From positions 21,759 to 85,758 of the forward strand of contig JAGOVG010000003.1 in the NCBI GenBank assembly GCA_018060845.1: a DNA stretch of 64,000 nt, given 5' to 3'. Positions 10,183 through 52,186 of this stretch are shown here, one piece after another. Under the pieces are notes generated by a model, which ran no database searches, was not told the origin of the DNA, and saw only the letters and a list, made by a program, of their open reading frames with translations. Source of the DNA: Candidatus Woesebacteria bacterium. GTDB lineage: Bacteria; Patescibacteriota; Microgenomatia; UBA1400; UBA12108. Position 1 is the stretch's first letter, and every line of letters starts with the position of its first letter. Both the position numbers and the translations under genes were made by a program.

Positions 10183-10276
10183 TAGCTAGTTTCCCAGATC
10201 TACACACCCAAAACATACAAATTGCTTGACAAGTGACCTATAATAGTCATAGTTATTAGTCGAGGAGGAGAATTAT

Positions 10277-13682: not shown

Positions 13683-14054
13683 TTATTTGCCTAACCGCAT
13701 TAGTGCAAGAATCGCGCGTTGTGTTCCATCAATAACATCTGGATTTGTTCGTGACAAGGTTTCGGCTATCTCGATTCCAGGGTTTTGACCTTTCAACCAA
13801 GCAGTATACAAGTCAAGCGAAGGCGCGTGGTCATATCCGTCGATTAATTGAGTTGATTTGTCGACCACGGTGGATAGTACATTTGATACATGATTAAGGA
13901 CAGAATTTGCTACACCCATCACATCAATACCACTCTCAATCATCCCAACAGCTGTCCATAAAATAAGCCCAGCACCAACTAAATAGGGCACTGCTTCAAC
14001 CGCCCAGTTCTCTTGTTTCCTGTTCATCGTATTTTTTAGTTTTTCCATACACAT
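13683..14054 (-). CDS. hypothetical membrane protein
   Basis: One TM segment (AVEAVPYLVGAGLILWTAVGMI). No recognisable domain. Confidence 0.3.
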   Translation of the reverse strand: MCMEKLKNTMNRKQENWAVEAVPYLVGAGLILWTAVGMIESGIDVMGVANSVLNHVSNVLSTVVDKSTQLIDGYDHAPSLDLYTAWLKGQNPGIEIAETLSRTNPDVIDGTQRAILALMRLGK

Positions 14055-14093
14055 CTCCTACTCACATATTATACCACTATCTATACTATAAGT

Positions 14094-15482
14094 CTACTGC
14101 CTGCCTGGAGGAATAGAGTTCTTGACTCGTTCTGAATGCTGTATATCTTGCTGCAACAATTCTACGTTAGTTTTAATTTCTTCCACTCCTCGAGCGGCCT
14201 GCGATTGCTCCCCATGTACAATACTCATATGTGCTATCGTCTTTTCCGTTGCATCAGTCACCATCCTGGCTATGTCATGTATTTGTGCAGCTTTTTCTTC
14301 AATTACTCCAGCTATTTGTTGCCCTAGTTGAGTAGTCAATATTACTTCTAAAGATGGATGCTTATAATTGTACTTATCTTCCATTGCAGCAACCACTCTC
14401 ACCATAGTGTCCCGATGAATTGGTAGATCTTTTACGCCATCTCTTTTGCTAATGTCAGCTAATAATTTTACTATTTCGTCTGCATCTTTTACTGCTTGTT
14501 GTGCATCTGCTGCCAGCTTTGGGTTCCTCGGTGTCGCCATTGCTAACTTTGAGCTAATAGACTGAGCAGAAGCTTCAGCAAATCTTGCATATGGCGCTAA
14601 ATGACCAATGTCTACATTTACTGGACCAGTATATTCATCTCCCAATCCATATGGATTAGCACCTACTGAACTGTTTGAGTTACTAGATCCATCTGCCGGG
14701 TAACTATAGAAAGTGTCAACTCCATCGCCATTATTATGGTTTCCTGCCAAAGCACTAGCATATCGTTCCGCCTCACCCTTAGCTGGACTTAGCCTACTGC
14801 CCTGGCGAACATAAGAGGTGTCACCTGGATCTGCGCGAAAAATTGCATACAACCAGTAACCTACCCCAAGTGCAGCTAGTCCAGCTCCACCCAGAAGGAG
14901 ACTCCGCTTATTTTCTTGCCTATTAGTTGCCGACTCCTCTCCTACCCCTCTTACTGTAGCGCTATTCATAGATGCCACAAAGATATCTACTGGAACTACT
15001 GCATTGACTGTATATTGCTGTTCAACCGCTGGATCAAAGAACACCATCCTTGTAGGTACATAAAAAGTATCATCTCCTTCAATTTTGGTGAGCGATATTG
15101 TGTCTGGTAGGTTATCTAATCTGATGCTCATGTCTTGAGCATTTGCTACATTGGCAGAGTCAGCATTAGTGCTAGGTATATTTTCAGCAAAGAAGCTAGG
15201 ATTAATATAGAGATCATGAGTAGCACTTATATAGTTAGCTAGTAGTTGCTGAAATAAGACCAAGTTTAATGTGTCGCCAGGCAAACAGTTGGCAGTATCA
15301 AGTGATAGCTGCTTAGTAGCGTCATCCACTCTGGGGTGTATACAGTCAGCCACAACATTCCCTAGAATCTCTGCGCTGGTACCACAGGCTAAACTAGATA
15401 ATATACCCATCAAACCAAGCACTGCAAAACTCTTTAAGCGAGTACTCCAGTGAATATTGCTCTCTGGGGATTTGTGGGACAT
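14094..15482 (-). CDS. hypothetical secreted/membrane protein with C-terminal coiled-coil
   Basis: Signal peptide. Internal TM (LLLGGAGLAALGVGYWLYAIF). The C-terminal about 70 aa (GEQSQAARGVEEIKTNVELLQQDIQ) are faintly reminiscent of an MCP signalling-domain tip. Confidence 0.35.
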   Translation of the reverse strand: MSHKSPESNIHWSTRLKSFAVLGLMGILSSLACGTSAEILGNVVADCIHPRVDDATKQLSLDTANCLPGDTLNLVLFQQLLANYISATHDLYINPSFFAENIPSTNADSANVANAQDMSIRLDNLPDTISLTKIEGDDTFYVPTRMVFFDPAVEQQYTVNAVVPVDIFVASMNSATVRGVGEESATNRQENKRSLLLGGAGLAALGVGYWLYAIFRADPGDTSYVRQGSRLSPAKGEAERYASALAGNHNNGDGVDTFYSYPADGSSNSNSSVGANPYGLGDEYTGPVNVDIGHLAPYARFAEASAQSISSKLAMATPRNPKLAADAQQAVKDADEIVKLLADISKRDGVKDLPIHRDTMVRVVAAMEDKYNYKHPSLEVILTTQLGQQIAGVIEEKAAQIHDIARMVTDATEKTIAHMSIVHGEQSQAARGVEEIKTNVELLQQDIQHSERVKNSIPPGRQ

Positions 15483-17571: not shown

Positions 17572-18954
17572 ATGTCAAAGTATTCTATGTTTAATCACAT
17601 CTTGTTTCGCACTACAGCGTGTGTCTTTTTGACGATTGCACTCAGTTTCATATCTTCTTCTCCTGTACTAGCTCAGAGCACTCCAGGCATCACTACTGGC
17701 AGCATTCGCAAACTAGACGTCACTCCACCAAGCGGCGGCTACTTTGAGCTGCCATTTTTTATGACATCATTTAACAATACTCGTGTAATTAATGTTCCAA
17801 CAGCCTGGACTTTTACCTGCAATGTCACTGCCAACCCTCTTACTACTAGCATTAACACCAGTAACTCTAGTTGTCTCTTAACCAACAAGAGTCTCATCCA
17901 CCAAAAAGATTCTAGTGTCACTGCTCCCTACGCCCGCAACTATATAGCGACCGTTACCAACCACTACATTAATGTTGGTGGCTCACAGAGGCGCTATAGC
18001 GTTAACCACGGCGAAAATAAGAACGAAAAGGTTAATGGTGTAGCATATCAAAACTCAGTTAACCCTGATATCACTACTTCTACGTGTATGTCACAGTTAG
18101 TAAATGGTGTCTACCAAGACTGTAATGCTTCCTACCACTCGTTTATAACTCTAAGCTACGGTGACAGCTATCCACAGACAGATCTTGGACCCATCATATG
18201 GCCCGATCGCGGCTACTACTCCCCTCACCCTAATAACTCAGGAGTTCGCTGGAGCCACTCTTTTGTCCGCATTCCTCATGGTTTTGTTAATGACGGGTAC
18301 CTGTACGTTTACTACCACGAACAATCCTCCTACAACGATAGAATTGGTTTAAAAGTGGCTCGCGCTCCAATCAACAATCTGACCCCAGCAGCATTCAAAA
18401 AATACTCACAGGGTAGCTGGGTCCCAGCACTACCCTCTGGTTTTGACAACAACAGAATTACAGATTTTTATAATCAGCCAACCAGCGACTCTAGCCCTAT
18501 TATCCCAAGAGTTACTGGCGTCGCGCATATTTCTATGGCTGTCACCAAGACTCAATCAGGCTCATTTTTGGGGATCGAAGAAGCAATAGTCAATAATCAG
18601 TGGGCGCTGCGCCTCTACTCAACGACTGATCTAGTCAACTTTACTCTTCTCGGGACCGTTGCACAGGAGGCTAGTTATGCCGCAGGCAAACTTCATTACC
18701 CCGTTTTTCTAAACGCGGCTGGCGACAATAGTAGTCTAGTTGATACTAATAATTTTTACGTAGTCGGTAGTAGCCACACTGGCGAGATCTCGGTACTCCC
18801 GTTAAGCGTCTCTAACATGAAGCCCAGCAAGCCAGGTGACCTTAACCTTGATGGCACAGTCAATCTCATCGACTTTAATCTCCTAATCACCAATTTTGGT
18901 AACCCTTATACTATCCTCGACTTTAACTCGATCATTAGTAACTTTGGCAAATAA
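17572..18954 (+). CDS. Secreted protein of unknown function with C-terminal dockerin-like module
   Basis: Signal peptide. C-terminus KPGDLNLDGTVNLIDFNLLITNFGNPYTILDFNSIISNFGK, nearly identical to the tail of 8368-10182. Confidence 0.55.
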   Translation: MSKYSMFNHILFRTTACVFLTIALSFISSSPVLAQSTPGITTGSIRKLDVTPPSGGYFELPFFMTSFNNTRVINVPTAWTFTCNVTANPLTTSINTSNSSCLLTNKSLIHQKDSSVTAPYARNYIATVTNHYINVGGSQRRYSVNHGENKNEKVNGVAYQNSVNPDITTSTCMSQLVNGVYQDCNASYHSFITLSYGDSYPQTDLGPIIWPDRGYYSPHPNNSGVRWSHSFVRIPHGFVNDGYLYVYYHEQSSYNDRIGLKVARAPINNLTPAAFKKYSQGSWVPALPSGFDNNRITDFYNQPTSDSSPIIPRVTGVAHISMAVTKTQSGSFLGIEEAIVNNQWALRLYSTTDLVNFTLLGTVAQEASYAAGKLHYPVFLNAAGDNSSLVDTNNFYVVGSSHTGEISVLPLSVSNMKPSKPGDLNLDGTVNLIDFNLLITNFGNPYTILDFNSIISNFGK

Positions 18955-18963
18955 TACCAACCA

Positions 18964-23695: not shown

Positions 23696-24955
23696 ATGCC
23701 CAAGTTTTTTATTGTTCTAATTCTTACTACTTTCAACTTTCTAATCTCTACTATTTCAGTCCACGCTGCAACAGATCCTATATCGGCCACAGTTAGTGCA
23801 ACCGCCAGGATCCCTAGCGCTAGTCCAACTACAGACGATACCGCAGCTCCCCCTGCCGTTATTTTGATTTCCCCTCACGATGGCGCGACCACCAACCAGT
23901 CACGCCCCGAACTAGTATGGAAGACGACCTTTGATAGTAATAGTAACAACGTAAGTTATATCGTCTACCTCAATGGTGTAGCTACCTATCTAGGTGTTAG
24001 TAATACCGGCAACTCACAGCAAAATAACTACATCTCCCATATCGGAGATGGCAACATTTATCTGACACCGACCATTGATCTACCTGCCGGTACCTACGAT
24101 TGGTATGTGAGAGCCATAGATGGCAGCGACAACTCTAGTTTCTCTACCACCTGGCGCTTTACCATTGATCAGACACCGCCGCAACTCACAGTGGTCAATA
24201 TTGATGATGTCTATCTCTCCCCATCCATTACAGAGGGTACTAGCTTTGATTTACCAGGACCACAAGAGGTCAAGATCATCTTTGCGACCGAGAGCTACGC
24301 TACAGTCTCAGTAACCATAACACTCAGTGATGGGACTTTAAGGTCTGTCAGCTTGCCTACCAGTAGTTCTGGTCTCGCCACACTCCTAACCTCGCTCCCG
24401 TTAGGAAGACATGAGATAGTCGCAACTAGTTTTGACTCTGCAGGCCTAACCACTACCCTACCCACCTTCTACCTCAATCTCACTACCACCACCATACCTG
24501 GTATTACAGGGTCGCCCATCCTGCCTATACTCAAAAATATCGTCAATCTACCCGCAAAACTGATAGTATTACCCGCTACCATCTCCCAGATCAAAGATGC
24601 TCAAGTGTTCGCATATGGTTATTCTATATTGCTAGCATTAGCAATAGCCATACTGCTAATCATAATCTGGAGCAGGAGATATAACATCACGATCCTTGAT
24701 ACTTCAACCAACAAGCCCTATCGATCACTTATCGTATACCATAGTAGACCTACTCACTCCGCGAGGCTAGGTGACTTAGCTAGTCGCATCTTTGTAACCT
24801 CTCGCTCACCTATCCTCTACGAGCTAGGGAGCAGTGGCAGGGCCTACATTAGTCATCTGTCGCGCTACAGTAGCTTAACTATCCGCACACCTAGTGGTAC
24901 TACCCACATCCTCTCGATCTCATATAATCTGAACAAGTATGTAATCTGTCTCTAG
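23696..24955 (+). CDS. Secreted Ig/FN3-like surface protein with C-terminal TM anchor
   Basis: Signal peptide MPKFFIVLILTTFNFLISTISVHA, paralogous to the cassette signal peptides. Beta-rich repeats. TM ILLALAIAILLIIIW near the C-terminus. Confidence 0.45.
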   Translation: MPKFFIVLILTTFNFLISTISVHAATDPISATVSATARIPSASPTTDDTAAPPAVILISPHDGATTNQSRPELVWKTTFDSNSNNVSYIVYLNGVATYLGVSNTGNSQQNNYISHIGDGNIYLTPTIDLPAGTYDWYVRAIDGSDNSSFSTTWRFTIDQTPPQLTVVNIDDVYLSPSITEGTSFDLPGPQEVKIIFATESYATVSVTITLSDGTLRSVSLPTSSSGLATLLTSLPLGRHEIVATSFDSAGLTTTLPTFYLNLTTTTIPGITGSPILPILKNIVNLPAKLIVLPATISQIKDAQVFAYGYSILLALAIAILLIIIWSRRYNITILDTSTNKPYRSLIVYHSRPTHSARLGDLASRIFVTSRSPILYELGSSGRAYISHLSRYSSLTIRTPSGTTHILSISYNLNKYVICL

Positions 24956-24960
24956 AGCAT

Positions 24961-25094
24961 AATTGTGTAGTGTTGTGCAGTGTAAGTAGGAGTAATCAAG
25001 TAAATATTGACCAAGCGAGTATGAGCGTAAGCGATGTCTACGAGCGACTCAATGTTTACCTGATATGTCTTTCTCACAAACAACACGCACAATT
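24961..25094 (+). repeat. Copy 1 of a ~130-nt conserved noncoding element (candidate structured RNA)
   Basis: Core TTGTGCAGTGTAAGTAGGAGTAATCAAGTAAATATT...GAGCG..AGCGA..CGAGCGAC..TTTACCTGA. About 75-80% identical to 52060-52160. Closed by imperfect inverted repeat AATTGTGTAGTGTTGTG / CACAAACAACACGCACAATT. Confidence 0.55.
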
Positions 25095-25243
25095 AGGCGA
25101 GATCACTATTTTCACATTACCGTAATCAGTGTAAACATTACCGCAGATACATTGCGGTTAATATACTCCGACTTGAGTATTGACAGCACCCATCATGTAT
25201 TACTATAGTGGGTGTATATCGATATAACTACGTATAACTCCAG

Positions 25244-28200
25244 ATGAAAAACACTGTCCAATTACCCTCTACTCACACAGCTCTCTTAACCGCCTTCAGG
25301 ACCTACTTGGCTAGTCTCGGCTTAAGCAGTATTAGCCGCAAGCTCTACTCTGCAGATATAGCTCGATTACTCGCCTCAAGTCTCTTTAGTGATCTCAATG
25401 TCGCTACCCTGACCAACCCCAAGAACTATGCATCCTACCTCTCCCAGCCCGAGCTAACTAGCTCTAGCACCCTACTCCGCCGCACACTCGCATCACTTCG
25501 CCAATTTGGCACCTTCCTCAATCAGAGTTTTGACCTCCCAAGCCCCATCACCAACCTCTCTCTAGCCTCCAACACCCTCTCAAACACCATTAGCAACAGT
25601 TCGAGCAAGTATATCAAAGCATGCATGGAGTATCTCAAAGACAATCATCTAACAGATTCGAGTATTAGGTCCTATAAATCAGACATCACCCAGTACCTCA
25701 CCTACCTAGAGTCTCACCACCCTAGCACTCAGATAGGGAGTCTGCTAACTGATAAAAATCTACAAAATTACACGGATCTACTCACTCATTTGGATACCCA
25801 ATCCCCTGCTACCATAGAGCGCAAAATCAAAACTATCAGACGATTTTTGAACTGGTACAGCAGTACCAAGTTGCAGGTAGTAGTATCCGATAACACAAAA
25901 ATCCCCGCATCCAGTTCACATATCTCCCCTCTGTCCTCTTCCGTCCAGGTCAATGGTGTTAACTCCGCACAGGCAGAGCTCTACTCAGATCAACCTCAAA
26001 CTCAACTACCAGATCACAAGTACAATAATGTGAAAACTAGCAATTACCGCAAACTACGTCTACCCACTCTAAGAATGATCCTAAGCGGCGTAATCCTCTT
26101 AGTCTTAGTCTCCACACTCTCAATATTCTCTTATCGACAGTTTGGCCGTGACGCTAGTCTAACTGCCGCCTTCCCCTCTACTCCAGTAACCCCCAATAGG
26201 CAGTTGAGTTTTCAGGGTCGCTTAGAGAATGCGAGCGGCACCCCAATCACTGCCGCGACCAACTTTGTCTTTAAGCTCCACGATGCCAGTAGCGGTGGCT
26301 CAGAACTATATAGTAGTGGTACCTGTAGTATCACCCCCGACACCGATGGCGTCTTCTCAACACAAATCGGCGGGACCTGTGGCGCCGGGATCGCGAGCTC
26401 TGTCTTTACCGAGAACGCAGATGTCTGGCTCGAAGTCACAGTCGGTGCCGAGACTCTAACCCCTCGCCAGCAGATTGCAACCGTCGCCTACGCCCTTAAC
26501 TCTGAGACCATCCAGGGCTTCCCGATCAGCGCCACAGTTAGTGCGATCAGAAACACAGTTGTCCCCATGAACCAGTGGGGCGAGATCATCGTTGGTGAAC
26601 AGTCCCCTCGTCTAACCGGAGTCTCAGGTACTTTTCAAATCTCGGCCCCCTCCCTCTCCTTAGTTACTGCAACTGGCACCAACGGCAACATCACATTAGC
26701 CCCCGACGGCACTGGTCAGGTTAATGTCAATGGCAACACCACTACCACCAACTTCTTTAATGTCAGTAACGCTCAGCTTACAACCGGATCCTTGATTACA
26801 GGTACTGCCGCCAACAACAATACAGGGTTCAACTTACTTGATCTATTATCAGGTGCCTCACCTACCAGCAAATTCTCGGTATCTGATTCAGGAGATACCA
26901 CAATTGCAGGCACACTCTCATTACCCAACTCAAATAATATGACTGGTGTCGCCAATGGCGTTCAATTTAATGAGGGTATTTTTGTCGGAGGTGGCACAAC
27001 TTACTATTTTGACGTTGGGGGTGAGCTAAATGCAGCAGGTGGGGCCTTCTCTAATGGCTTAAGCATCATTAACGATTCTGCTCTATCTGCTTTTGGCCAA
27101 GTAAACTTAGGTGATGGAGGTGAGACTATTCATCTAAACGGAACTAGCATTACACTCACTGGCTTTGACTGTACCGGCAACACCAACGGTGGCGCCCTGA
27201 CCACCAATGGTTCTGGGGTTCTACAGTGTAGTGATGACGACGGAGGTGGTGGTGGCAGCGGTGGTCTCTGGCAAGACACTACACTAGGCGCCATCTCCCC
27301 AAACAACTCTACCTGGGACGTCTTGGTAGGTGGCACAGCTACTAGTAGTGCCAAAATCGGTTTGATCAATATAAATAGCGGCACCCCTACCATCAATCTA
27401 GCTAACCAAGCCAGTAATCTAGCAGTAATTGACAATACCAGTAACGCCCTACGTATCCTCGAAGGAGCCAACAACTATCTCGCACTCACCACAACTAACG
27501 CGAGTGAAAACTTGTCATTTGGCAATACAACCACCAATCCTACATTCTCATTCCTAGGCACAGGTCTCACTACTCTTAGTGGTGGATTGACGGTTAACGG
27601 CATTACAACTATCGGCAACAACTCAGCGACTGTCGCTATCAATAGTAGCGACTGGGATATCACGACAGTCGGTAATATGTCTGGAATTGGAACCATTAGT
27701 AGCGATGGTGACTGGACCAACAGTCAGGCAACGCCATCTATATTTTTGACTGATTCTACAGCTAGTTCAGACGACTATAGCGTCAATGTCGACGCTAACG
27801 TATTTAATATAACCAATGCAACAGACTCTAGAATAGAGCTAGATTTCGCAGGTAACGGTAGTATCAACTTTGGCGACAACACTGCCACCAAGACTATCGA
27901 CATCGGTGGTGTCACAAGCTCAGCCATCGACACTATTAATATAGGTACCAACGCAACTGCCGCAGATATTATCTCTATCGGCAACAACCATGCATCAACT
28001 ACTCTTGCTCTCACAGGCGGTACAGCCTGGAGCATCACAACAGCAGGCAATCTAACTACCAACAATACAACAGTTAACGGTAATACAATCCTCGGCAACG
28101 CCATTACCGACACAATCGACTTCCAGGGTCGGGTACTACAAGATGCAGACCTCATCCCTATCACTACTACTGGGACCAATGACTTGGGTAGTTCTGCCCT

Positions 28201-31200
28201 CGCCTGGGACAACCTCTACACTAACGCTGCCTACTTTGCAGGCGGCACCAGCTTCTATGTCGATGCCTCGGGTAACGCTAGATTTAACGATATTATCGCT
28301 GCCGACACCGCTAACCCAGGTATCACCGTCGGCGATGGATCAACTGGCTTCCTCAAAGTTGGGTCACTGACAGTAGGAGACAATAATGCAAGTGTCGTGA
28401 CCTTTGATACTAACAGCGACGCAACTCCCGAATTTCAGCTCTACAACACCGGTTCCGCCACTGCCTCGGGCGACATTACAATGGGGGGACAGTTGCAGGT
28501 CGGTAGATTTGAAAACACTCCAACAGCCATCGGTGCCGGCACCATGATCTTTAATACGACTACCAACAGTTTCCAATGCTACAACGGTACCGCCTGGACT
28601 AGCTGTGGTGGGACGCTCTTTAGTAACTCTAACGCAAGTGTGGCCGATGGCAGCTATATTACAGTCACTCACAACTTGGCCAGTAACGACCTCCTCTCCA
28701 ATGCCTGGATCAACGCACAAGGGGTCTGGAAGAGTCTCGATGCCAGCTATAAACCCGCGATCGCTTGGGAGGGCAAGGATACTCAAAAAGGGATCTATCA
28801 CAACGCTCTAAACAGCTATATCCCCTCCTCAGAGACAGGCACCGGAACCAACACTCTCCATGAGGGGATGATCTTTGACACATTTGAGGACACAACCAAG
28901 ACCGATAGTGCCAACACCACGGTCAGCACCAACCAACAAATAGGCGATGATGGTAGTAGTAACTTTGTCACCCTCGACCAGCGCATCCAAGGCGGGCGGG
29001 TCGGGCTAGTTGGTGGTCAAACTTTGAGTACTGGTGAAACAGACAATGATGGCCAAGCATACTTAGGTAGCAACACAGTTAATGATATGTATTATTACGA
29101 TAGAGCAAAAGATAGCGTACCAGAAGTTTTAGTAGAACTTGGCATTGATCCAAACTGGTATAACGGAGTTACTCTTTCAGTTGCAACAGGTAGTGCAAGT
29201 TATTCTCAATCAGGAACACTTGCAGACAAGAATCCAAACCTAACAACTACATATAACGGTAGTTTAATCAAAGCAACAGGAACTGATTCAACACCGAGAA
29301 CAATCTTTATAACAATCAAATCCCCTACTACATTTGATTGGACAAACTATGAGGGTGACTCTGCAACAGCAGTCACAATTACTCCAGGAACTGCACAGGC
29401 ACTAGGTAGTACAGGCGTATCAGCTACTTTTACAGCTACAAACTACAACGTCGGTGATGTATTTAAAATTGCCTCTTGGTATATAGAAGCAGAATCTGCA
29501 ACAAGAGGAGCAAAACAACAGTTTCCAGAAAGAAGTTATGTTGTAGCTTCAGGTACAGCAGGAGCAGGTTTTATTGATGTGATCGACGCCGACACGCAAA
29601 AATTATGGATTAAGTTCACAGAAGGTACTGGGTACTACCTTCGCTCTACAGCAAATCGCGTCCCCCACACTGTTGACATGCTAAACGGCAAATTATACTT
29701 TGGTCAAAAGGATTCTAACAATGGGATCCTAGAAAGGATCAACTTTGATACAGATTCACTACACTTATGGACCCCGTCTGCTAAATACACCTACGACCAA
29801 GGAATATCACAAAGGAATACAGCCAGTAATATATTAACAATCAACACAACTGAAACAACTGTTGCAAACGACGTCAACGATGTTTCTGCAGCCGTCATCC
29901 CAAATCAACCGTCACAACAGATGACTCTGACAGGCTGGCGAGTTCACCCCGGCAATGGAACTGCAACCCTAACTTCTGGTGTTGACTTCCAGTATCCGTT
30001 TACCGACACACCTCAAATTCAAGTAAGTATTGTTGGTAGAACCACCTCAACTACAACGCCAAAAAGTCTAAAGGACTGTTCGACTAATGTCGATTCTGCA
30101 ACCATCTCAGCATACAACAACAATCCAGCTAACTTTTATGCAAGATTTTCCAACACAACCTTCTCTGCTTCTTACAATTATTGCTTTGTTTGGAGTGCGA
30201 CAGGCACAGTTGCACCAAAACAAATCGTGGCGGTTGCGACAGGCACAACTGGGGCAGATGGAGGAACGACTATTATCAACGAAACTGACGGTAAAAAGGC
30301 CGACATTTTAATTGGCTCACAAAACGCTTCAGTATTATGGCAAAACAAGGTTGCATTGGCTCAAGATGGCACGTTGTATGTCGTATTAAACAACCAATCG
30401 ACAGCAACAACCCTTAATGTCTATGCTGGAGCGTCGGGCATACCTGAAGTAATTTCTCAAGAACCAACCTGGGCAGCTTATCGCAATGGATTCTATTACC
30501 TTGATTTGCAAACACAAGGATGGTCAGCAACTGGTCCGGTCATTAAAGGAGTAGGTACAAACTCAGATGAAGTTAAGTCTCTATCTGTAACTAGTGGAAC
30601 CAGTTCAATATCTCCCGGAGCAAATACTATTTATGTTGGCACCTCTACAGGTGTAACCGTACTTAATGAAGCCAACATAGAGCCAGATTACAATAGTGAC
30701 GAACCAAGCAACGGCTCAGTCAAATACTACACCAAAGACTACGTTTCTGAAGAAATGATTGGCGATGTAAGAGGAATGTGGGGTATGTATGATACTGATA
30801 CAGACATTGACACGGCTGAAACAACAGATGATGTCTCGATTAAAAATCTTAACCTAACAGCTAACAACGCAAACAGTACTGGGTTTACCTCAACCTCAGG
30901 AGTTCGTGGTGAAGGTATAACTTTTGATGGTACCGACGACTACTTTAGTCGCGCAGATGACGCATCACTTAGTTTTTCTAACAACACCATGTCGGCAAGT
31001 TATTGGGTAAAACGTAATGGAAATCCATCTTCTGCTGAATATATCATGCTCAAAGGAATTACCACCTGGGAATATGCTTCTGCTATTACTACTGCAGGTA
31101 AAATTATCAGCTGGTTATTTACTTCAGCTGGAGCTACTGTCGCAACTGTTACTTCTAATTTATCTGTCACTGACAATGAGTGGCATCATGTAGCTATAAC

Positions 31201-34200
31201 CTCAAATGGTTCTACTATTGCTGTGTATATCGACGGGCAATTAGACAATAACTCCACATCATTCACCAGTGCAATGACAAATACTGCATCAAGTTTTTAT
31301 GTCGGAGACAGATCAGACATAGCTAATTCAGAGTTCCAAGGTTCATTAGATGAATTAATGATAACTGGCACTGCTTTATCGAGTAGTCAAGTTAGGAATA
31401 TCTATCAAGTTGGCTATCGTGCATTACAAAGTCATACAAGTTCTGGATTAGGTACAGGTGGTGCAGATACTAACCAACAGCTCGGATACATTTCGACAGG
31501 TACTAGCTCTGTAGGTGTAGTTCAACCGGATTACAACAACCAATATATGTACGTAGGTACAAACTCAACAACACTTGGAGCTCTATCAAAAATACAATTG
31601 AACAGTGATACAAATATTAAAACCTACAACTCCAGTGCAAACGTCCCTACTGGCGGTGTTCTTACTTTAGATGAAGACATAACTTCCCTAGCAGTTGGAG
31701 AAACACTGTATGCAGTTGGTTCTGCAGCAAGTGGTGTTAAAACAATGGGACTGGATAACAATGCAACTGCAACTAGTGGTAACTTTGTCAGTAAAACCTA
31801 TGCGCTACCAAAAAATATTGGCTCTGCAGTTCTTTGGGTCTCACCAATTATGGACAGCAACGACGGAAGTAACACAATCACAGTACAGGCAAGTAACGAT
31901 GGTGGTAGTAACTATGCAACTTGTACTCTAGTAAACACAAATACAAATTATGATGCACCAGAACGTGAGTATGCCTGTACATTTACAGCTGCAGACAACG
32001 ACCTAAAAGTTAGATTTCAAATGGCAAGAGGAAACACAAAAACAAATACCTATGTTGTCCAATATGGAATTAGCTGGTTAGGTGAAACTGGTTTTAGAGT
32101 CGAACAAGCTGATAACAACAATGTAAGGTTATATAACTTCTCAGGTGAAGCTCAAAACTTAAAGTTAAACATAACTGGTGCATCAACTTCTGCCCTAGCA
32201 AACCCATGGACAGATGGTGGTAGCTACATTTACGCAACAGGATATGAAACATTAAGAATATATGACGGTGCAGGAACAAATTACTTAGGACTCTCTCATG
32301 ATGGAACATATGCAACATTGGGCTACAATGGTACAGACTTTATCAACCTCACATCAACAGGTGATTTATTACCAGAGACAAATGATACTCAGGCTCTTGG
32401 TTCTGACTCATTTAGATGGGAAGATGTCTTCCTCGGTCCAGGTAGCGTTCACGTTGGAACCTCAACGACTGACGAAGGTGTTATATCTTATGATACATCC
32501 GGTAACATCTTAAATATTGGTACGGATAGTACTAGTAATGGAGATATTGCATTCTTCACCGACGACCTCTATCTAGATAAATCGTCTGGATTTATCGGTC
32601 TCGGCGATATAACTCCAGATTACTTACTTGACGTCGCAGGCACTGCAGGGTTTGACTCAACGCTCACACTTACCGGATCAGCAGCAAATGTCGCACTCGG
32701 ATCAAACTACCTATCAGGCGATGGTGGTGATGAAGGAGTCTATGTTGACTCCAGTGGTAACGTCGGCATTGGGAATGCCTCACCTGACAGACCATTACAA
32801 GTTACGAGATCAACAACAGGCATACCTATGAGATTACAAAACAATTTTACAGATTCATCTGAGTACTGGGTAGTCGGTCCGTCAGACAGTGATAACTTCG
32901 CGATATTTAATGATGCAACAACTGGTATGTATATTGCGTATGGTGCCACCTCTTGGACCGCCAACTCAGACGAACGACTAAAGACTAACATCGAGGCGCT
33001 CACTAGTGTAGAAGGACTGGCATCTCTTCTAGAGTTGACTCCGGTCAACTACAACTGGAAAGACGTTAACACCAATCAGAGCAAGCAAACAGGTTTCTTA
33101 GCTCAAGAAGTCCAGCGTCTCTTCCCAGGACTTGTAAGTTTAGGAGAAACCACAACAATTACGCTTGCTGATGGCTCGACCCAGACGATCGAGGCACCCC
33201 TTGGCGTCAACTACACTGGCTTTATCCCATACATCATCAAAGGGATCCAGGAACAACAAGCACAGATTAGTCAGATGTTCCAAAATCTCATTACACCTCA
33301 AGTTAATACCGCCATGATATCCCCTCTCGCTCCAGGGCAGTCCATCGAGATCACAGCCCCCGTCGTCATCTCACCCACAACTCCCAACCTAGACACGCCA
33401 ACTCTCATCGTTGATGGTGAGATTGAGGCCACGACCATCTCTGCTCGTGTAGCTCAGTTAGAAACCATCCGTGCCGAGACAATTACCGCCAGAGACATAG
33501 TAGCCGACACTATCACTGCCAACTCAATTGTCGGTCTAGATGCCAAAATAGCTAGTCTCTCAGCCGGGATCAGCGAATCAGATTTCGACTCGATCTCCGA
33601 GCGGATCAGATCTAGATTAGCGAGCCTGACTGGTGGCGAGGCAAATGCCCAGGACGTCCCCGCTCCTCCCTCTATTCCTGAGACAGTAATCGAATACTCA
33701 GAGCTATCCACTGCCTCAGCTACGCTAGCTACTGCCGACATAGACTTTGTCACAGTCAATCAGTATCTCGCTGTCATCGGCTCAGCCACCATCACTAGTT
33801 TGGATATAACTAGTGACCTCTATACTAATAGAATAGGTAGCAAGGATAACCTCCTCGCCATCCAGCCACTCGGTGGGATAGTCAACATAGCAGACAGCAC
33901 ATTTGTTGTAGATAGTAGCGGCCAGGTCATGGTCAACGGCGACTTAACAGTCTCCGGACGCATCCTAGCCGAATCAGGCAACCTAGGTTCGCTTGAACTA
34001 GGTTCGCCATTGGACGCTTCAGCTAGTAGCGCGCTAGGCAACCTCCTCTCTATCTACAACGAGCAGGGACAAGCGGTCGCAACTATAGACGCTTCAGGCA
34101 GTGCCAATCTAGCGGGTCTCACCACCCAGCTAGTAACCATCGCATCAGGTGGAACCTCCGCCACTCAGTCAGGACTGATCTCAAGTCAGACGAGTAGCAA

Positions 34201-34453
34201 CTCAACCGCAGGTGTCAGCACCCTCCTCTCACCCGACACTGAGCTAACGATCGATAGTCCCTATGTCACTGCCAACTCCCTAGTCTATTTGACACCTACC
34301 ACAAATACTGACAACAAAGTTCTTTTTGTCAAAGCTAAGGTTAGTTGTCCCGAAGAATCTGAACTATGCACACCATCATTCACAGTCGGGATAGATGCAC
34401 CAGCGTCGACTGACATCGGCTTTAACTGGTGGATAATCGAGCTCAAACAATGA
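25244..34453 (+). CDS. Giant (3069 aa) single-pass membrane surface protein. Two N-terminal phage-integrase SAM-like domains, TM, Gly/Thr/Asn-rich beta-repeat ectodomain with LamG-like domain and S74-type intramolecular chaperone domain.
   Basis: Uninterrupted 9.2-kb ORF. Two N-terminal repeats resemble the XerD N-terminal domain (LTAFRTYLASLGLSSISRKLYSADI and YLKDNHLTDSSIRSYKSDITQYLTYL). TM at about aa 272-298. LamG/ConA-like segment at about 30.88-31.41 kb (WHHVAITSNGSTIAVYIDGQ...LDELMI). SDERLKTNI...VNYNWKD at 32.96-33.25 kb matches the PF13884 tail-fibre chaperone motif. Confidence 0.75.
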   Translation: MKNTVQLPSTHTALLTAFRTYLASLGLSSISRKLYSADIARLLASSLFSDLNVATLTNPKNYASYLSQPELTSSSTLLRRTLASLRQFGTFLNQSFDLPSPITNLSLASNTLSNTISNSSSKYIKACMEYLKDNHLTDSSIRSYKSDITQYLTYLESHHPSTQIGSLLTDKNLQNYTDLLTHLDTQSPATIERKIKTIRRFLNWYSSTKLQVVVSDNTKIPASSSHISPLSSSVQVNGVNSAQAELYSDQPQTQLPDHKYNNVKTSNYRKLRLPTLRMILSGVILLVLVSTLSIFSYRQFGRDASLTAAFPSTPVTPNRQLSFQGRLENASGTPITAATNFVFKLHDASSGGSELYSSGTCSITPDTDGVFSTQIGGTCGAGIASSVFTENADVWLEVTVGAETLTPRQQIATVAYALNSETIQGFPISATVSAIRNTVVPMNQWGEIIVGEQSPRLTGVSGTFQISAPSLSLVTATGTNGNITLAPDGTGQVNVNGNTTTTNFFNVSNAQLTTGSLITGTAANNNTGFNLLDLLSGASPTSKFSVSDSGDTTIAGTLSLPNSNNMTGVANGVQFNEGIFVGGGTTYYFDVGGELNAAGGAFSNGLSIINDSALSAFGQVNLGDGGETIHLNGTSITLTGFDCTGNTNGGALTTNGSGVLQCSDDDGGGGGSGGLWQDTTLGAISPNNSTWDVLVGGTATSSAKIGLININSGTPTINLANQASNLAVIDNTSNALRILEGANNYLALTTTNASENLSFGNTTTNPTFSFLGTGLTTLSGGLTVNGITTIGNNSATVAINSSDWDITTVGNMSGIGTISSDGDWTNSQATPSIFLTDSTASSDDYSVNVDANVFNITNATDSRIELDFAGNGSINFGDNTATKTIDIGGVTSSAIDTINIGTNATAADIISIGNNHASTTLALTGGTAWSITTAGNLTTNNTTVNGNTILGNAITDTIDFQGRVLQDADLIPITTTGTNDLGSSALAWDNLYTNAAYFAGGTSFYVDASGNARFNDIIAADTANPGITVGDGSTGFLKVGSLTVGDNNASVVTFDTNSDATPEFQLYNTGSATASGDITMGGQLQVGRFENTPTAIGAGTMIFNTTTNSFQCYNGTAWTSCGGTLFSNSNASVADGSYITVTHNLASNDLLSNAWINAQGVWKSLDASYKPAIAWEGKDTQKGIYHNALNSYIPSSETGTGTNTLHEGMIFDTFEDTTKTDSANTTVSTNQQIGDDGSSNFVTLDQRIQGGRVGLVGGQTLSTGETDNDGQAYLGSNTVNDMYYYDRAKDSVPEVLVELGIDPNWYNGVTLSVATGSASYSQSGTLADKNPNLTTTYNGSLIKATGTDSTPRTIFITIKSPTTFDWTNYEGDSATAVTITPGTAQALGSTGVSATFTATNYNVGDVFKIASWYIEAESATRGAKQQFPERSYVVASGTAGAGFIDVIDADTQKLWIKFTEGTGYYLRSTANRVPHTVDMLNGKLYFGQKDSNNGILERINFDTDSLHLWTPSAKYTYDQGISQRNTASNILTINTTETTVANDVNDVSAAVIPNQPSQQMTLTGWRVHPGNGTATLTSGVDFQYPFTDTPQIQVSIVGRTTSTTTPKSLKDCSTNVDSATISAYNNNPANFYARFSNTTFSASYNYCFVWSATGTVAPKQIVAVATGTTGADGGTTIINETDGKKADILIGSQNASVLWQNKVALAQDGTLYVVLNNQSTATTLNVYAGASGIPEVISQEPTWAAYRNGFYYLDLQTQGWSATGPVIKGVGTNSDEVKSLSVTSGTSSISPGANTIYVGTSTGVTVLNEANIEPDYNSDEPSNGSVKYYTKDYVSEEMIGDVRGMWGMYDTDTDIDTAETTDDVSIKNLNLTANNANSTGFTSTSGVRGEGITFDGTDDYFSRADDASLSFSNNTMSASYWVKRNGNPSSAEYIMLKGITTWEYASAITTAGKIISWLFTSAGATVATVTSNLSVTDNEWHHVAITSNGSTIAVYIDGQLDNNSTSFTSAMTNTASSFYVGDRSDIANSEFQGSLDELMITGTALSSSQVRNIYQVGYRALQSHTSSGLGTGGADTNQQLGYISTGTSSVGVVQPDYNNQYMYVGTNSTTLGALSKIQLNSDTNIKTYNSSANVPTGGVLTLDEDITSLAVGETLYAVGSAASGVKTMGLDNNATATSGNFVSKTYALPKNIGSAVLWVSPIMDSNDGSNTITVQASNDGGSNYATCTLVNTNTNYDAPEREYACTFTAADNDLKVRFQMARGNTKTNTYVVQYGISWLGETGFRVEQADNNNVRLYNFSGEAQNLKLNITGASTSALANPWTDGGSYIYATGYETLRIYDGAGTNYLGLSHDGTYATLGYNGTDFINLTSTGDLLPETNDTQALGSDSFRWEDVFLGPGSVHVGTSTTDEGVISYDTSGNILNIGTDSTSNGDIAFFTDDLYLDKSSGFIGLGDITPDYLLDVAGTAGFDSTLTLTGSAANVALGSNYLSGDGGDEGVYVDSSGNVGIGNASPDRPLQVTRSTTGIPMRLQNNFTDSSEYWVVGPSDSDNFAIFNDATTGMYIAYGATSWTANSDERLKTNIEALTSVEGLASLLELTPVNYNWKDVNTNQSKQTGFLAQEVQRLFPGLVSLGETTTITLADGSTQTIEAPLGVNYTGFIPYIIKGIQEQQAQISQMFQNLITPQVNTAMISPLAPGQSIEITAPVVISPTTPNLDTPTLIVDGEIEATTISARVAQLETIRAETITARDIVADTITANSIVGLDAKIASLSAGISESDFDSISERIRSRLASLTGGEANAQDVPAPPSIPETVIEYSELSTASATLATADIDFVTVNQYLAVIGSATITSLDITSDLYTNRIGSKDNLLAIQPLGGIVNIADSTFVVDSSGQVMVNGDLTVSGRILAESGNLGSLELGSPLDASASSALGNLLSIYNEQGQAVATIDASGSANLAGLTTQLVTIASGGTSATQSGLISSQTSSNSTAGVSTLLSPDTELTIDSPYVTANSLVYLTPTTNTDNKVLFVKAKVSCPEESELCTPSFTVGIDAPASTDIGFNWWIIELKQ

Positions 34454-37055: not shown

Positions 37056-37814
37056 ATGAAAGCTCGAAATACAAAATCCTGGAAAACACTCATAATCCCC
37101 ACTCTCGTAGTCGTGATTACCTTGCTCTATCTCTTCATCAAACCTAAGCCGATCCAGATCGCCGAAATTACTAATGTCCCAGGCAGCGTATCACTAACTC
37201 TGAGCGCCACATCTCCACAGCTCAAGCTCAACCAGCCCAGTACAGTCACACTCTCATATAGCTCTCCAACCGAAAGATTCACCGCCATCCAGACCGATAT
37301 TATCTTTGATCCGACCTACTTTAATGTCTCATCATTTACCCCCTCTCCCACCATGGAGGCCATCCTCCAGACTGCTACTGTCAAAAATGGCAATACTATT
37401 TCTTTTGCTTACGGGGTCGCACCTGGTAGTCAGGGTTTAATCGGTAGCGGTAGCATCATGAGCTTTACTGTCACACCAAAAAAAACTGGCTCTAGCCCGC
37501 TAACTCTGCAGAATACCTTAGTCGCGACAATAGGTCGTCCCACCAACGCTCTCCAGAGCGTGGCTAATCCCACATTTACCGTGATCAACCCATCCCCCTC
37601 AATATCCCCCACACCGAGCCCCACTCCCTTACCTTCAATTACTCCGACACCTAGTCCAGTGCCCTCTCCTTCACCATCTCCCACCTATAAGGCAGGTGAT
37701 CTCAATAAAGATGGTCAGGTCAACTTTGTCGACTTTAATGTACTCATTACCGACTTTGGGACCAAATATCACATTGTCGACTTTAACAACATCATTACCA
37801 ACTATGGCAAGTAG
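37056..37814 (+). CDS. Cohesin-like domain protein with C-terminal dockerin-like module (adaptor-scaffoldin-like)
   Basis: N-terminal TM or signal. Cohesin-like segment VTLSYSSPTERFTAIQTDIIFDPTYFNVSS...ISFAYGVAPGSQGLIGSGSIMSFTVTPKKTGSSPLTL. PT linker. Then KAGDLNKDGQVNFVDFNVLITDFGTKYHIVDFNNIITNYGK. Confidence 0.5.
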   Translation: MKARNTKSWKTLIIPTLVVVITLLYLFIKPKPIQIAEITNVPGSVSLTLSATSPQLKLNQPSTVTLSYSSPTERFTAIQTDIIFDPTYFNVSSFTPSPTMEAILQTATVKNGNTISFAYGVAPGSQGLIGSGSIMSFTVTPKKTGSSPLTLQNTLVATIGRPTNALQSVANPTFTVINPSPSISPTPSPTPLPSITPTPSPVPSPSPSPTYKAGDLNKDGQVNFVDFNVLITDFGTKYHIVDFNNIITNYGK

Positions 37815-37852
37815 TTGTTTGCATACCTCGCAAATAATGCTACATTAGTTAT

Positions 37853-39247: not shown

Positions 39248-39358
39248 TCTCGAGTTGTAGTAAAATATCATCTACCAGGGACCTTATAGCTTGCACATCA
39301 AGTGCAGTATGCACATGAGAAATGCCTCCAGACACGAAGTAGTCTGGGAGACCAGTTG

Positions 39359-39390
39359 GTAGAGCGTCCCGATGGACATCGGGGAGGTAA
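39359..39390 (+). repeat. 32-nt direct repeat copy 1 (GTAGAGCGTCCCGATGGACATCGGGGAGGTAA) inside a degenerate tRNA-like sequence
   Basis: Identical to 39764-39795. Contains a 6-bp stem / 4-nt loop hairpin (CCCGAT ggac ATCGGG). Preceded by a tRNA D-arm-like CCAGTTGGTAGAGCG. Confidence 0.6.
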
Positions 39391-39421
39391 CCCTAGTCTT
39401 AACAATCAAATAGATATGCTT

Positions 39422-39497
39422 GGGCCCTTAGCTCAGTTGGTAGAGCGCTTCTATGGCATAGAAGAGGTAAGCGGTTCGATCCCGCTAGGGTCCACCA
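39422..39497 (+). tRNA. tRNA-Ala (anticodon GGC), CCA encoded
   Basis: Cloverleaf: acceptor GGGCCCT/AGGGTCC with the G3:U70 Ala identity pair. D-arm GCTC AGTTGGTA GAGC. Anticodon arm CTTCT ATGGCAT AGAAG. T-arm AGCGG TTCGATC CCGCT. Discriminator A plus CCA. 76 nt. Confidence 0.85.
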
Positions 39498-39761
39498 ATG
39501 TGGACTGTTTATATTCTGCAAAGCCAGATAAACTATTCCTACTACGTCGGCTCAACTTCTGATGTCAACCGCCGAATTAAAGAACATAATGCAGGCCACA
39601 CACCCTCCACAAAAAATCTCATACCACTCACCATTCGTTTTTCTCAAGAATACCCAACGCTAAAATATGCTAGAAAAGTCGAGAGTTGGTTAAAGTCCAC
39701 TCATAGCAAGGTCGTCATCGAACAAATAATACTAGATGGCAAGATAAACAAAAAGTTCTAA
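39498..39761 (+). CDS. GIY-YIG nuclease family protein (YhbQ/UPF0213-like)
   Basis: MWTVYILQSQINYSYYVGSTSDVNRRIKEHN is a classic GIY-YIG motif with the conserved Arg and Glu. ATG immediately follows the tRNA CCA. AGGG of the tRNA acceptor 3' strand sits 8 nt upstream as a possible SD. Confidence 0.7.
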   Translation: MWTVYILQSQINYSYYVGSTSDVNRRIKEHNAGHTPSTKNLIPLTIRFSQEYPTLKYARKVESWLKSTHSKVVIEQIILDGKINKKF

Positions 39762-39763
39762 CT

Positions 39764-39795
39764 GTAGAGCGTCCCGATGGACATCGGGGAGGTAA
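39764..39795 (+). repeat. 32-nt direct repeat copy 2, followed by a degenerate tRNA 3'-half copy (to about 39822)
   Basis: Identical 32-mer. The downstream GAGGTAAGCGGTAGGGTCCCACTAGGGTCCACAC parallels the tRNA-Ala 3' part AGGTAAGCGGTTCGATCCCGCTAGGGTCCACCA. Confidence 0.6.
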
Positions 39796-39822
39796 GCGGT
39801 AGGGTCCCACTAGGGTCCACAC

Positions 39823-50605: not shown

Positions 50606-51311
50606 TTCCTATTGCCACTTCGCGCGGATCTTTTGCCTGAGATATACTCCTACTTGCATTAATTATCATATCTAGTCCACGACTATTCTCTTTGTTTAAA
50701 ACTTGATCAACACTCCCACCCTGCGTTCCAACTCCAGGCACTAGTAGCACCATATCACCCACTATTTCTCTAGCTCTCTTTAATTCTTCGGGATGAGTTG
50801 CCCCAAACACTAGTCCCCACTGCTTCATTCCATGATCTCTTAATACCACGTCGCGAGCTATTTTTTCCCACATATTTCCTTGGTATTCCTCAGATTCTGG
50901 GTTACTGGTACGACACAACACAAATAATCCTTTATCTTCATACTTTTCAAACGCAGTCAACGCGCCAATCCCTTGGTATGGATGAAGCGTTACAGCATCC
51001 CCTCCTAGATACTCAAAAACATATTTTGCATATGCCTCGTTGGTGCTTCCAATATCACCCCGTTTTGCGTCAATTATCAACGGTATACCAGGATAGCTAC
51101 TATGGATGTAATCACAAATTACCTTAAGCTGCTCTACCCCCTTAGCTCCCTCAGCCTCATAAAATGCCACGTTCGGCTTGTATGCACATACCAAATCGGC
51201 AGTCTGATCGACGAGCTTCTTGTTAAACTCAAAGTCAGCTTGATCTAGACCAACGCAAAGAAAGCTATTATTTTTTACTGCAGCTTTCTTATATAAATCA
51301 AAAAACTTCAT
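50565..51311 (-). CDS. pyrF: orotidine-5'-phosphate decarboxylase
   Basis: LIIDAKRGDIGST substrate/catalytic motif. C-terminal PGVGTQGG phosphate-binding loop. Confidence 0.75.
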   Translation of the reverse strand: MKFFDLYKKAAVKNNSFLCVGLDQADFEFNKKLVDQTADLVCAYKPNVAFYEAEGAKGVEQLKVICDYIHSSYPGIPLIIDAKRGDIGSTNEAYAKYVFEYLGGDAVTLHPYQGIGALTAFEKYEDKGLFVLCRTSNPESEEYQGNMWEKIARDVVLRDHGMKQWGLVFGATHPEELKRAREIVGDMVLLVPGVGTQGGSVDQVLNKENSRGLDMIINASRSISQAKDPREVAIGIKRQVQLLMHGLN

Positions 51312-52050
51312 CGACTTGTCTCCTCAGCTTGTCGATACTTAAATCTCAAATTGTCAGAGATTATTCGAGATATTAACAAAGTATAATTACTATCTATAAA
51401 ATAACCCACCCTGATCCCGACACATACTCCCTCAACACCTTTTGTATTATTGTGCATTAAAAATGTAGTTTAACACAAAATATCATGCGCAATATTGGGG
51501 GATTATGAGCCTGCCCTATCTCACATATCCCCCAATACTAAGCACGAATTATTGTTTAGTAACATCAAGTGATTATAGGTCGTGACCCTACCCGTAGTGT
51601 GTAGTATATGTACTTACACACAAAATGTAGCTTGACGACTATATAACCGAGTGTTAAAGTGCATGTAACGCTCACGCATCCTCAAAACGCGCGTGACGTC
51701 CTTGAATAAGAGCATTGCTACACGTGAACCCGGTATTAGGTGATTCAGCGGTAGGAATGCTCTTTTCGTTTCTACTGAGCAGGGTTTTAAGGCCTGCTAG
51801 GGCAGTATATAAACTTGTTTTCAAAGACCAACCAAGTTATTAGCTTGATCTAGCGGGTATTATCGCGCGTTTCTTGCCTGGAGTCAACCCATAATAATTT
51901 ATTACCAACAAAAACACGTAACCCATAACATAAATAGATCTGGAGAAATGATAATAATGTCCAGTGTGGATAACTATAGAATAAACTAATAATCGTGAGG
52001 TAGATACTGATTTACACGGTGTGCCTAGCATAAAACTACTAGACATGAGG

Positions 52051-52179
52051 TTGTATGGTTTGTGCAGTGTAAGTAAGAACAATCAAGTAAAAATTTTCAA
52101 AGTGAGTTGGAGCGCCAGCGACGTTCAACGAACGACACAATTTTTACCTGAAGTGAGATTCTCACCAGCAAACCATACA
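52051..52179 (+). repeat. Copy 2 of the ~130-nt conserved noncoding element (candidate structured RNA)
   Basis: Core TTGTGCAGTGTAAGTAAGAACAATCAAGTAAAAATT...GAGCG..AGCGA..CGAACGAC..TTTACCTGA. Enclosed by an 11-bp perfect inverted repeat TGTATGGTTTG / CAAACCATACA whose sequence differs from the closing helix of copy 1. Confidence 0.55.
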
Positions 52180-52186
52180 TGCATGC

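Follow-up and report, generated by a model that had tools for sequence, protein, structure and literature searches.

A previously uncatalogued structured hairpin family beside stop codons in a lineage of Candidatus Woesebacteria

REP units are G+C-rich sequences of 20-40 nt that occur in hundreds of copies and depend on the RAYT transposase; they are hairpin-forming extragenic palindromes located at gene ends, and in the REPIN arrangement a doublet of about 100 nt forms one long hairpin. Bacterial MITE-like repeats are shorter than 200 bp, A+T-rich and able to form a long stem-loop when transcribed, and they are characterised by conserved terminal inverted repeats, which match those of a transposase, by TA ends, by duplication of the target site and by the presence of multiple copies (PMC2229807). 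Correia/NEMIS, RUP and other bacterial MITEs belong here, being small, A+T-rich, intergenic and hairpin-forming in their transcripts. The 127-bp ERIC element (IRU) is an imperfect palindrome of about 130 bp found only in intergenic DNA, usually in transcribed 3' regions and in either orientation; its interior is unusually conserved, shorter and longer variants exist, it can be present or absent at orthologous sites, and mRNA stability is affected by the long stem-loop that forms in its RNA (PMC2229807). ERIC copies number tens to hundreds, end in TA, carry short conserved inverted repeats at their termini and are accompanied by target-site duplications. Two further systems are comparable in shape. 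Intrinsic (Rho-independent) terminators are stem-loops that stand directly past the stop codon, and between convergent genes one terminator hairpin can serve both directions; 6S RNA, encoded by one or two paralogues per genome, is rod-shaped and 150-200 nt long, and its long closing stem leads through an internal bubble to an apical stem. To our knowledge, almost no regulatory RNAs have been characterised in the CPR bacteria, whose genomes are tiny.

The window analysed here is a stretch of 64,000 nt from a metagenome-assembled genome of Candidatus Woesebacteria (CPR/Microgenomates); its RadA has 100% identity to a protein that is annotated as coming from a Candidatus Woesebacteria bacterium. 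Two copies of one element lie on the same strand, copy 1 at 24961-25094 and copy 2 at 52051-52179, with a mean column identity of 78% in a MAFFT alignment; they have in common an exact 16-mer, TTGTGCAGTGTAAGTA (24973-24988 and 52060-52075), and the blocks AATCAAGTAAA, TTTACCTGA and TTCTCAC, and a repeat search of the window groups them as the two-copy family D10. Covariance model R1, run with filters off on the whole window, recovers copy 2 as 52046-52187 (151.3 bits) and copy 1 as 24958-25099 (143.3 bits). The remaining matches are the reverse strands of these same copies and noise of at most 14 bits, so that the 64 kb contain exactly two copies and no third one. The alignment, the repeat family and the covariance-model scores together rule out a chance repeat, and two matches with 3 mismatches, at 35588 and 48091, are unrelated to the hairpin family.

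Copy 1 begins 6 nt past the stop codon of an ORF for a Big_13 surface protein (23696-24955) and ends 150 nt ahead of a 3069-aa ORF for a giant surface protein (25244-34453). Copy 2 is antisense to radA (52187-53551, minus strand) and follows closely on the 3' end of that gene, within the 875 nt that separate it from pyrF; its last position is 8 nt short of the stop codon of radA (52187-52189, minus strand). A previous sequence-only reading had described two repeats of about 130 nt in these positions, on the same strand, with a core about 75-80% identical and with terminal helices that differ in sequence between copies while remaining complementary, the first copy 150 nt before the giant gene and the second in the pyrF-radA gap; all of this agrees with what we find. 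The positions that it gave also stand, but the hairpins themselves reach further, to 24948-25103 and 52040-52189, and overlap stop codons.

Each copy folds into a single long hairpin, of -48.9 kcal/mol for copy 1 and -38.0 kcal/mol for copy 2, with z-scores against shuffled controls of -4.7 and -3.1, respectively. The parts of the two hairpins are as follows.

24948-25103, plus strand: full extended hairpin of copy 1 (minimum free energy fold of 24940-25115, -52.2 kcal/mol)
Within 24948-25103, plus strand: outermost helix P0 of copy 1 (GUCUC/GAGAU), overlapping the last codons and the stop of ORF 23696-24955
24960-24976, plus strand: 5' arm of helix P1 of copy 1, TAATTGTGTAGTGTTGT, pairing with 25080-25095
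24973-24988, plus strand: invariant 16-mer TTGTGCAGTGTAAGTA of copy 1, spanning inner P1, the GUG helix and the start of the internal loop
24980-24982 with 25075-25077, plus strand: 3-bp helix of copy 1, GUG with CAC
24983-24991 and, opposite, 25067-25074, plus strand: conserved asymmetric internal loop of copy 1, 5' strand UAAGUAnGA, opposite strand GnnnUUCn (alignment A5)
24992-25010, plus strand: 5' arm of helix P2a/P2 of copy 1, containing UCAAGUAAA
25011-25048, plus strand: apical region of copy 1, purine-rich, with three AGCGA-like repeats and a small covarying helix, P3
25049-25066, plus strand: 3' partner in P2a/P2 of copy 1, containing UUUACCUGA, with a conserved A.C mismatch inside the helix
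25080-25095, plus strand: 3' arm of helix P1 of copy 1, ACAACACGCACAATTA
52040-52189, plus strand: full extended hairpin of copy 2 (minimum free energy fold of 52030-52200, -43.0 kcal/mol)
52052-52063, plus strand: 5' arm of helix P1 of copy 2, TGTATGGTTTGT, pairing with GCAAACCATACA at 52168-52179
52060-52075, plus strand: invariant 16-mer TTGTGCAGTGTAAGTA of copy 2; GUG 52067-52069 pairs with CAC 52163-52165
52070-52078 and, opposite, 52155-52162, plus strand: conserved internal loop of copy 2 (from the alignment)
52079-52097, plus strand: 5' arm of helix P2a/P2 of copy 2, pairing with 52137-52154
52098-52136, plus strand: apical region of copy 2 (from the alignment)

The outermost pairs of copy 2 reach the radA stop codon, and P0 overlaps stop codons at both loci of the window. 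With the relatives described below, the family consists of rod-like imperfect hairpins of 120-165 nt, with 35-45% G+C and minimum free energies from -33 to -53 kcal/mol. From the outside inward these hairpins have P0, an outer helix made of locus-specific flanks; P1, of 12-17 bp, variable in its outer part and UUGU/ACAA in its inner part; the 3-bp GUG/CAC helix; the internal loop 5'-UAAGUAnGA / 5'-GnnnUUCn; P2a/P2, of about 17 bp, with the conserved A.C mismatch; and an apex of 22-40 nt, rich in purines, in which AGC(G/A)A is repeated three times. Conservation is highest in the asymmetric internal loop and in P2 and lowest in the apex. Eight of the ten copies in alignment A5 have the 16-mer TTGTGCAGTGTAAGTA unchanged.

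Relatives were sought on contigs surrounding homologues of the neighbouring genes, which were searched with covariance model R1, and by pattern scans of larger collections. The sequence-only reading had proposed looking in related genomes, and these do contain homologues: the covariance model finds eight further distinct copies, which fall at two syntenic loci, one beside radA and one between a T4SS-pilin-like gene and uppS. Full copies, scoring 43-117 bits, are those of loci L001, L006, L009 and L010 (pilin-uppS), of L013-L016, L018/L019 and L020 (radA), and of L025, a degenerate copy of 43 bits. An exact-pattern scan of 185,579 species-representative genomes gave one match, which is L001, in a Woesebacteria MAG; a metagenome scan with the pattern GTGCAGTGTAAGTAN{55,85}TTCTCAC gave six stretches with L006 as the single homologue, the others (L002-L005 and L007) being chance matches with covariance-model scores of at most 13.5 bits. 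Within the collections searched, the known range of the family is one clade of Candidatus Woesebacteria. Its copy number looks low and is estimated at 1-3 per genome, from the two copies in the window, the one representative-genome match and the lack of any extra copy under the covariance model in about 300 kb of DNA flanking the relatives' loci, a sample that includes no complete genomes.

At the pilin-uppS locus (L001, L006, L009 and L010) the space between the T4SS-pilin-like gene (PF18895) and the convergent uppS is occupied by a short variant, about 120 nt long and about 20 nt from both stop codons; in L011 the two genes abut without an element. A tblastx comparison of L009 with the window, made to place the pilin-locus genomes relative to it, found no shared genes. 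At the radA locus the element lies 8-15 nt past the radA stop codon, antisense to radA, as a long variant in window copy 2, L013-L016 and L020 and as a short variant in L018/L019; the degenerate L025 copy also belongs to this locus. Only remnants of 65 and 49 nt, from which P2 and the apex are gone, are left in L012 and L021-L024, and the covariance model detects no element after radA in L017 or at the searched L026/L027 loci. A nested insertion in L018, of a short variant inside a long one, was considered and then abandoned, because the L001 and L018 flanks can be aligned at a greater distance (TGG..TAAAGGCG / GCC.AA..CCA) and simple homology with indels is more economical. As for L017 and L018, their RadA proteins are 99% identical, yet their DNA diverges completely from the last radA codons onward (L017 11329, L018 11320), and L017 is without both the hairpin and the conserved block that lies between copy 2 and pyrF; judged from the sequences, this divergence probably marks a recombination or insertion breakpoint exactly at the position of the element. 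In L020, an IS1595-family DDE transposase gene (13922-14728) lies about 2.5 kb from the hairpin.

Base pairing within the element has been maintained by compensatory change. Alignment A5, which was fitted to the structure of the model, represents about six lineages with its ten copies; 90.7% of its cells are paired. Fourteen pairs have changed on both sides, against 7.5±1.4 in column shuffles, none of 500 of which reaches the observed value; when the 3' partners are shifted by 1-3 columns, at most 7 such pairs are obtained. RNAalifold, run independently on A5, recovers P1, GUG/CAC and P2 together with a small covarying apical pair, and a plain MAFFT alignment of four copies has compensatory change in 7 of 26 pairs. 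The sequence-only reading had argued for a base-paired stem from compensatory differences between two copies, and in ten copies the covariation indeed exceeds that of shuffled and of slid controls alike. Two more lines of evidence do not depend on A5. The conserved block of the short variant is sharply bounded (AG[G/A]CGTC ... AAG[C/T]CGA), and beyond it the flanks are unalignable even between orthologous loci, yet mutually complementary in every copy (GTGGT/ACCAC, GGTGGT/ACCACC, AGGC/GCCT, TTGGCAT/ATGCCAA, CTTGGTATG/CATACCAAG and, in L020, 12 bp). Within the block, one series of pairs changes stepwise in alignment A6, GGC/GCC to GGC/GUC to GAC/GUC, that is, from G-C through G.U to A-U.

The sequence itself is also constrained. 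Among L001, L006, L009 and L010 the short variant is 88-94% identical, whereas the four-fold degenerate sites of the flanking genes are only 30-57% identical; synonymous sites are therefore saturated, and the constraint must act on sequence as well as on pairing. For orthologues at the radA locus the element is 69-75% identical against about 50-57% at four-fold sites. Moreover, the element tree is discordant with the loci: copy 1 is closer to L013 than to copy 2, and the radA-locus copy of L018 is 92-94% identical to pilin-locus copies of other genomes. In sum, selection maintains the intramolecular pairing, purifying selection on the core sequence is strong, copies are inherited at syntenic positions, and every one of them begins within about 25 nt of a stop codon. 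We conclude that it is a real, selected and previously uncatalogued family of structured hairpins in this CPR lineage.

Known RNAs and proteins do not account for it. At gathering thresholds, Rfam 15 identifies only a tRNA-Ala in the whole window, and at E<=10 no match in 24900-25300 or 51250-52250 overlaps either copy, the 6S, SRP and Y-like families included; the covariance-model scan against Rfam that had been proposed earlier has thus been run, and it rules out a known RNA family for either copy. In particular, there is no match to RF00013 (6S RNA) at E<=10. Moreover, unlike 6S RNA, which it resembles as a rod, the element has an internal loop of just 9 x 8 nt and a large open loop as its apex, and it has been lost at a locus in several relatives. 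A protein-coding function was rejected as well: ORFs cross the copies on both strands, but a 1-nt indel shifts the frame, and L001 has a TAA in the frame of copy 1.

The sole good sigma-70-like promoter for the giant gene (TTGACA-18-TATAGT, 25180-25209) lies downstream of copy 1, and the family follows stop codons and does not precede starts; a cis-regulatory leader of the giant gene, one of the options of the sequence-only reading, is therefore unlikely. At both window loci the next promoter-like site lies beyond the hairpin. We tentatively favour, at somewhat less than an even chance, the view that the element is a putative RNA 3'-end element of the preceding gene, which sets or protects the 3' end, insulates the next unit and carries a protein-recognition loop. 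The element would then act as RNA, forming the 3'-terminal part of a transcript whose gene lies next to it (the Big_13 gene at copy 1, radA at copy 2, and the pilin gene and uppS among the relatives); its long stem would define or protect the 3' end of that transcript and insulate the next promoter, and the conserved internal loop and P2 might be the recognition site of a protein, e.g. a nuclease or an RNA-binding factor.

An ordinary terminator is a poor description of this putative 3'-end element. Like an intrinsic terminator it is a stem-loop directly past the stop codon, also between convergent genes, but it is about five times longer, has neither a short G+C-rich stem nor an adjacent U-tract, and is conserved in the sequence of its loop and helix, which a terminator does not need. 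Scanning for intrinsic terminators at both copies gave none, and no U-tract directly follows the stem; lacking a G+C-rich stem with a U-tract, it is not a classical intrinsic terminator. The same facts count against the 3'-end reading as a whole, since such strong sequence conservation would be superfluous for a plain terminator or stabiliser. Its main weakness is that the element is both sense (after Big_13 and pilin) and antisense (after radA and uppS) to the genes it follows, so that a strand-specific recognition site in a 3' UTR would not be presented at every locus. Moreover the element is lost or reduced in L012 and L021-L024 and absent from L011, L017 and the searched L026/L027, and it is therefore dispensable at a given locus.

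Either strand may be the functional one: both fold about equally well, and counts of G-U against A-C fail to separate them. For the sense strand speak a ratio of 7 to 2 of G-U pairs to A-C mismatches, obtained when the degenerate L025 copy is excluded, and the G.U intermediate in L006; for the antisense strand speak the conserved A.C mismatch, which there becomes a G.U wobble, and radA and uppS, which would supply the transcript. Also in favour of the antisense strand, a minus-strand promoter-like sequence with a TG extension (TTTACA-16-GAAAAT, 25135-25108) points straight into copy 1, with its predicted start at the base of the hairpin.

The conservation pattern may instead suggest an RNA with a function of its own. 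Of the three options raised by the sequence-only reading, a small structured RNA is the one still tenable. One formulation, possible although we hold it to be somewhat unlikely, is a new class of functional structured RNA in this Woesebacteria clade, a rod of 120-160 nt that would bind a dedicated protein or carry an activity and exist as 1-3 paralogues exchanging sequence; the invariant asymmetric loop, the mismatched P2 and the apex with its AGCGA repeats would be the functional parts, under a constraint comparable to that of housekeeping RNAs. Another, which we regard as a little more doubtful, is an independent gene for a small trans-acting structured RNA, present as 1-3 paralogues per genome and serving as part of a ribonucleoprotein or as a regulator, in which the function would reside in the conserved loop, P2 and the apex, while the stem P0/P1 would serve for closing or processing. 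An invariant interior within a freely covarying closing helix is the conservation pattern of structured RNAs, and the short variant is under near-rRNA-like sequence constraint across saturated lineages; the copy number, apparently low (one match among the representative genomes, two copies in the 64 kb, no other across some 300 kb of related DNA), suits such a gene. The closeness of copy 1 to L013 and of the L018 copy to pilin-locus copies (92-94%) looks like exchange between paralogues, and the pseudogene-like remnants at one locus fit paralogue redundancy. Against a small RNA gene are the absence of a convincing flanking promoter or terminator and of any Rfam match, 6S, SRP and Y-like families included. 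Between stop codon and stem there is no room for a promoter at the pilin-uppS locus or at copy 1, and such an RNA would therefore need to be processed from an mRNA.

A mobile origin was among the options of the sequence-only reading, in the form of a miniature inverted-repeat element. The size and composition of the element, 120-165 nt and A+T-rich with a long stem-loop fold, are those of a MITE. However, conserved terminal inverted repeats are absent, the outer arms differing between copies (TAATTGTGTAG, TTGTATGG, CTTGGTATGAG, AGTGA and AGGCGTCATAT) while the interior is conserved; no direct repeat flanks any copy, the flanks being instead inverted-complementary (P0); and TA ends are not consistent, TA...TA being found at copy 1 only. 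With variable termini, no target-site duplication and an apparently low copy number, it is not a typical MITE, and the earlier suggestion is weakened. The terminal repeats and TA duplication of Correia/NEMIS, RUP and other MITEs are not found here, nor, in the DNA scanned, is their high copy number. REP units and REPINs, equally hairpin-forming and located at gene ends, differ from it in being G+C-rich and numerous, whereas this element is A+T-rich and apparently low-copy and has an asymmetric conserved loop; no Y1 (IS200/IS605-type) transposase was recognised among the Pfam families listed for genes in the fetched loci.

ERIC is a close parallel, in its length, intergenic 3' position, use of both orientations, conserved interior, length variants and presence or absence at orthologous sites, but the Woesebacteria element differs from it in having variable termini, no target-site duplication and only about 1-3 apparent copies per genome, in lacking any sequence similarity and in belonging to another phylum. 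We consider it unlikely, and less probable than the small RNA gene, that the family is an ERIC-, Correia- or REPIN-like palindromic intergenic repeat, non-autonomous, mobile now or formerly, surviving in 3' UTRs and possibly co-opted there. Such a repeat would explain why the element resembles bacterial MITE-like repeats in being shorter than 200 bp, A+T-rich and forming a long stem-loop transcript (PMC2229807), why it sits at at least three non-homologous loci in both orientations relative to genes, why it is present or absent at orthologous sites (the pilin-uppS locus of L011; the radA locus of L017, despite a RadA that matches that of L018 at 99% identity), why internal-deletion derivatives exist and why the L018 radA copy shares 92-94% identity with pilin-locus copies from other genomes. 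It fits poorly with termini that are the least conserved part and show neither target-site duplications nor consistent TA ends, with an apparently low copy number (none further in about 300 kb of related DNA), and with retention of the same loci at 88-94% identity across saturated lineages, which suits function and not the decay of a neutral parasite. Viral contigs and the phage and plasmid collections searched hold no counterpart of the hairpin element.

The least probable reading, and in our opinion a very unlikely one, places the function in the DNA, as a hairpin site that folds when single-stranded (e.g. in the lagging-strand template) and serves replication, recombination or transfer. Pairing is equally good on both strands, bases of the asymmetric loops would be extrahelical, which is also so in sites that are recognised in the form of folded single strands, T4SS-pilin-like genes are neighbours of one locus, and the sense strand of the element is the C-rich strand at all three independent loci (GC skew about -0.2), regardless of gene direction; agreement of three loci in orientation is, however, expected by chance in about 1 case in 4. 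Genes for a recombinase, relaxase or integrase are not a constant feature of the surroundings. Sequence inspection of the ends of either window copy did not find the boxes of integron attC sites (R'' RYYYAAC, R' GTTRRRY), and there is neither a cassette array nor an integrase among the scanned neighbours or the Pfam families listed for the fetched loci. As DNA, a long palindrome is usually unstable, with which the deletion remnants agree.

The gap that contains copy 2 includes further conserved noncoding DNA. At about 51470-51852 (minus strand), some 370 nt are nearly invariant in five relatives, in which the four-fold sites of radA are just about 50% identical; the block begins just past a conserved promoter-like sequence, TTGACT-17-GATAAT (51887-51859), and is followed by prs in the relatives and by pyrF in the window. 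Fourteen pairs of this block have changed on both sides, against 7.0±1.8 in shuffles; the compensatory changes lie in two helices, including a hairpin at 51475-51555. The block has no Rfam match, and no tmRNA was found. We regard it as a candidate for a new large structured RNA or leader, perhaps more interesting than the hairpin family. Upstream of the promoter-like sequence, a second conserved noncoding block (51890-51990) contains a perfect DnaA-box sequence, TTATCCACA (51965-51973, minus strand), the sole exact one in the window, together with a GATC site and two TTATGGGT repeats, and may be a regulatory region. Inside the larger block, TTTGTGTGTAAGTA (51611-51624, minus strand) resembles the most conserved segment of the hairpin family, TTTGTGCAGTGTAAGTA; because it lies on the opposite genomic strand, a hairpin RNA made in the sense of radA, i.e. 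the antisense RNA, would be partly complementary to it.

Other features of the window were also recorded. The GC skew of the plus strand, about -0.2, is strong and uniform over the 64 kb and independent of gene orientation, and it is the same in every related locus from L001 to L025. A tRNA-Ala(GGC) gene and an 87-aa ORF, which by eye we take to be GIY-YIG-like, are bracketed by two tRNA-like half sequences (39340-39395, 39422-39497, 39498-39761 and 39758-39822), which share an identical 32-mer, GTAGAGCGTCCCGATGGACATCGGGGAGGTAA; the arrangement could represent an insertion flanked by parts of a split or duplicated tRNA gene. A repeat of 128 nt, 65-80% identical, at the 3' ends of three ORFs (10057-10184, 18829-18956 and 37689-37816) suggests a shared C-terminal module. 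Many ORFs of the window start with repeats of the CTTTCTACTTTC type, which look like signal-peptide coding sequence (families D1 and D3-D9, which include the 128-nt repeat).

Identity of about 90% beside saturated synonymous sites, with pairing kept through compensatory changes, is strong evidence for function. Curators of RNA motifs gain a concrete new family, with an alignment, a structure and known loci. Should the family prove to be an ERIC-like repeat, it would be the first of its kind known to us in the CPR, a literature search having found none comparable. For organisms that are not yet culturable alone, the element is a marker for the biology of transcript ends.
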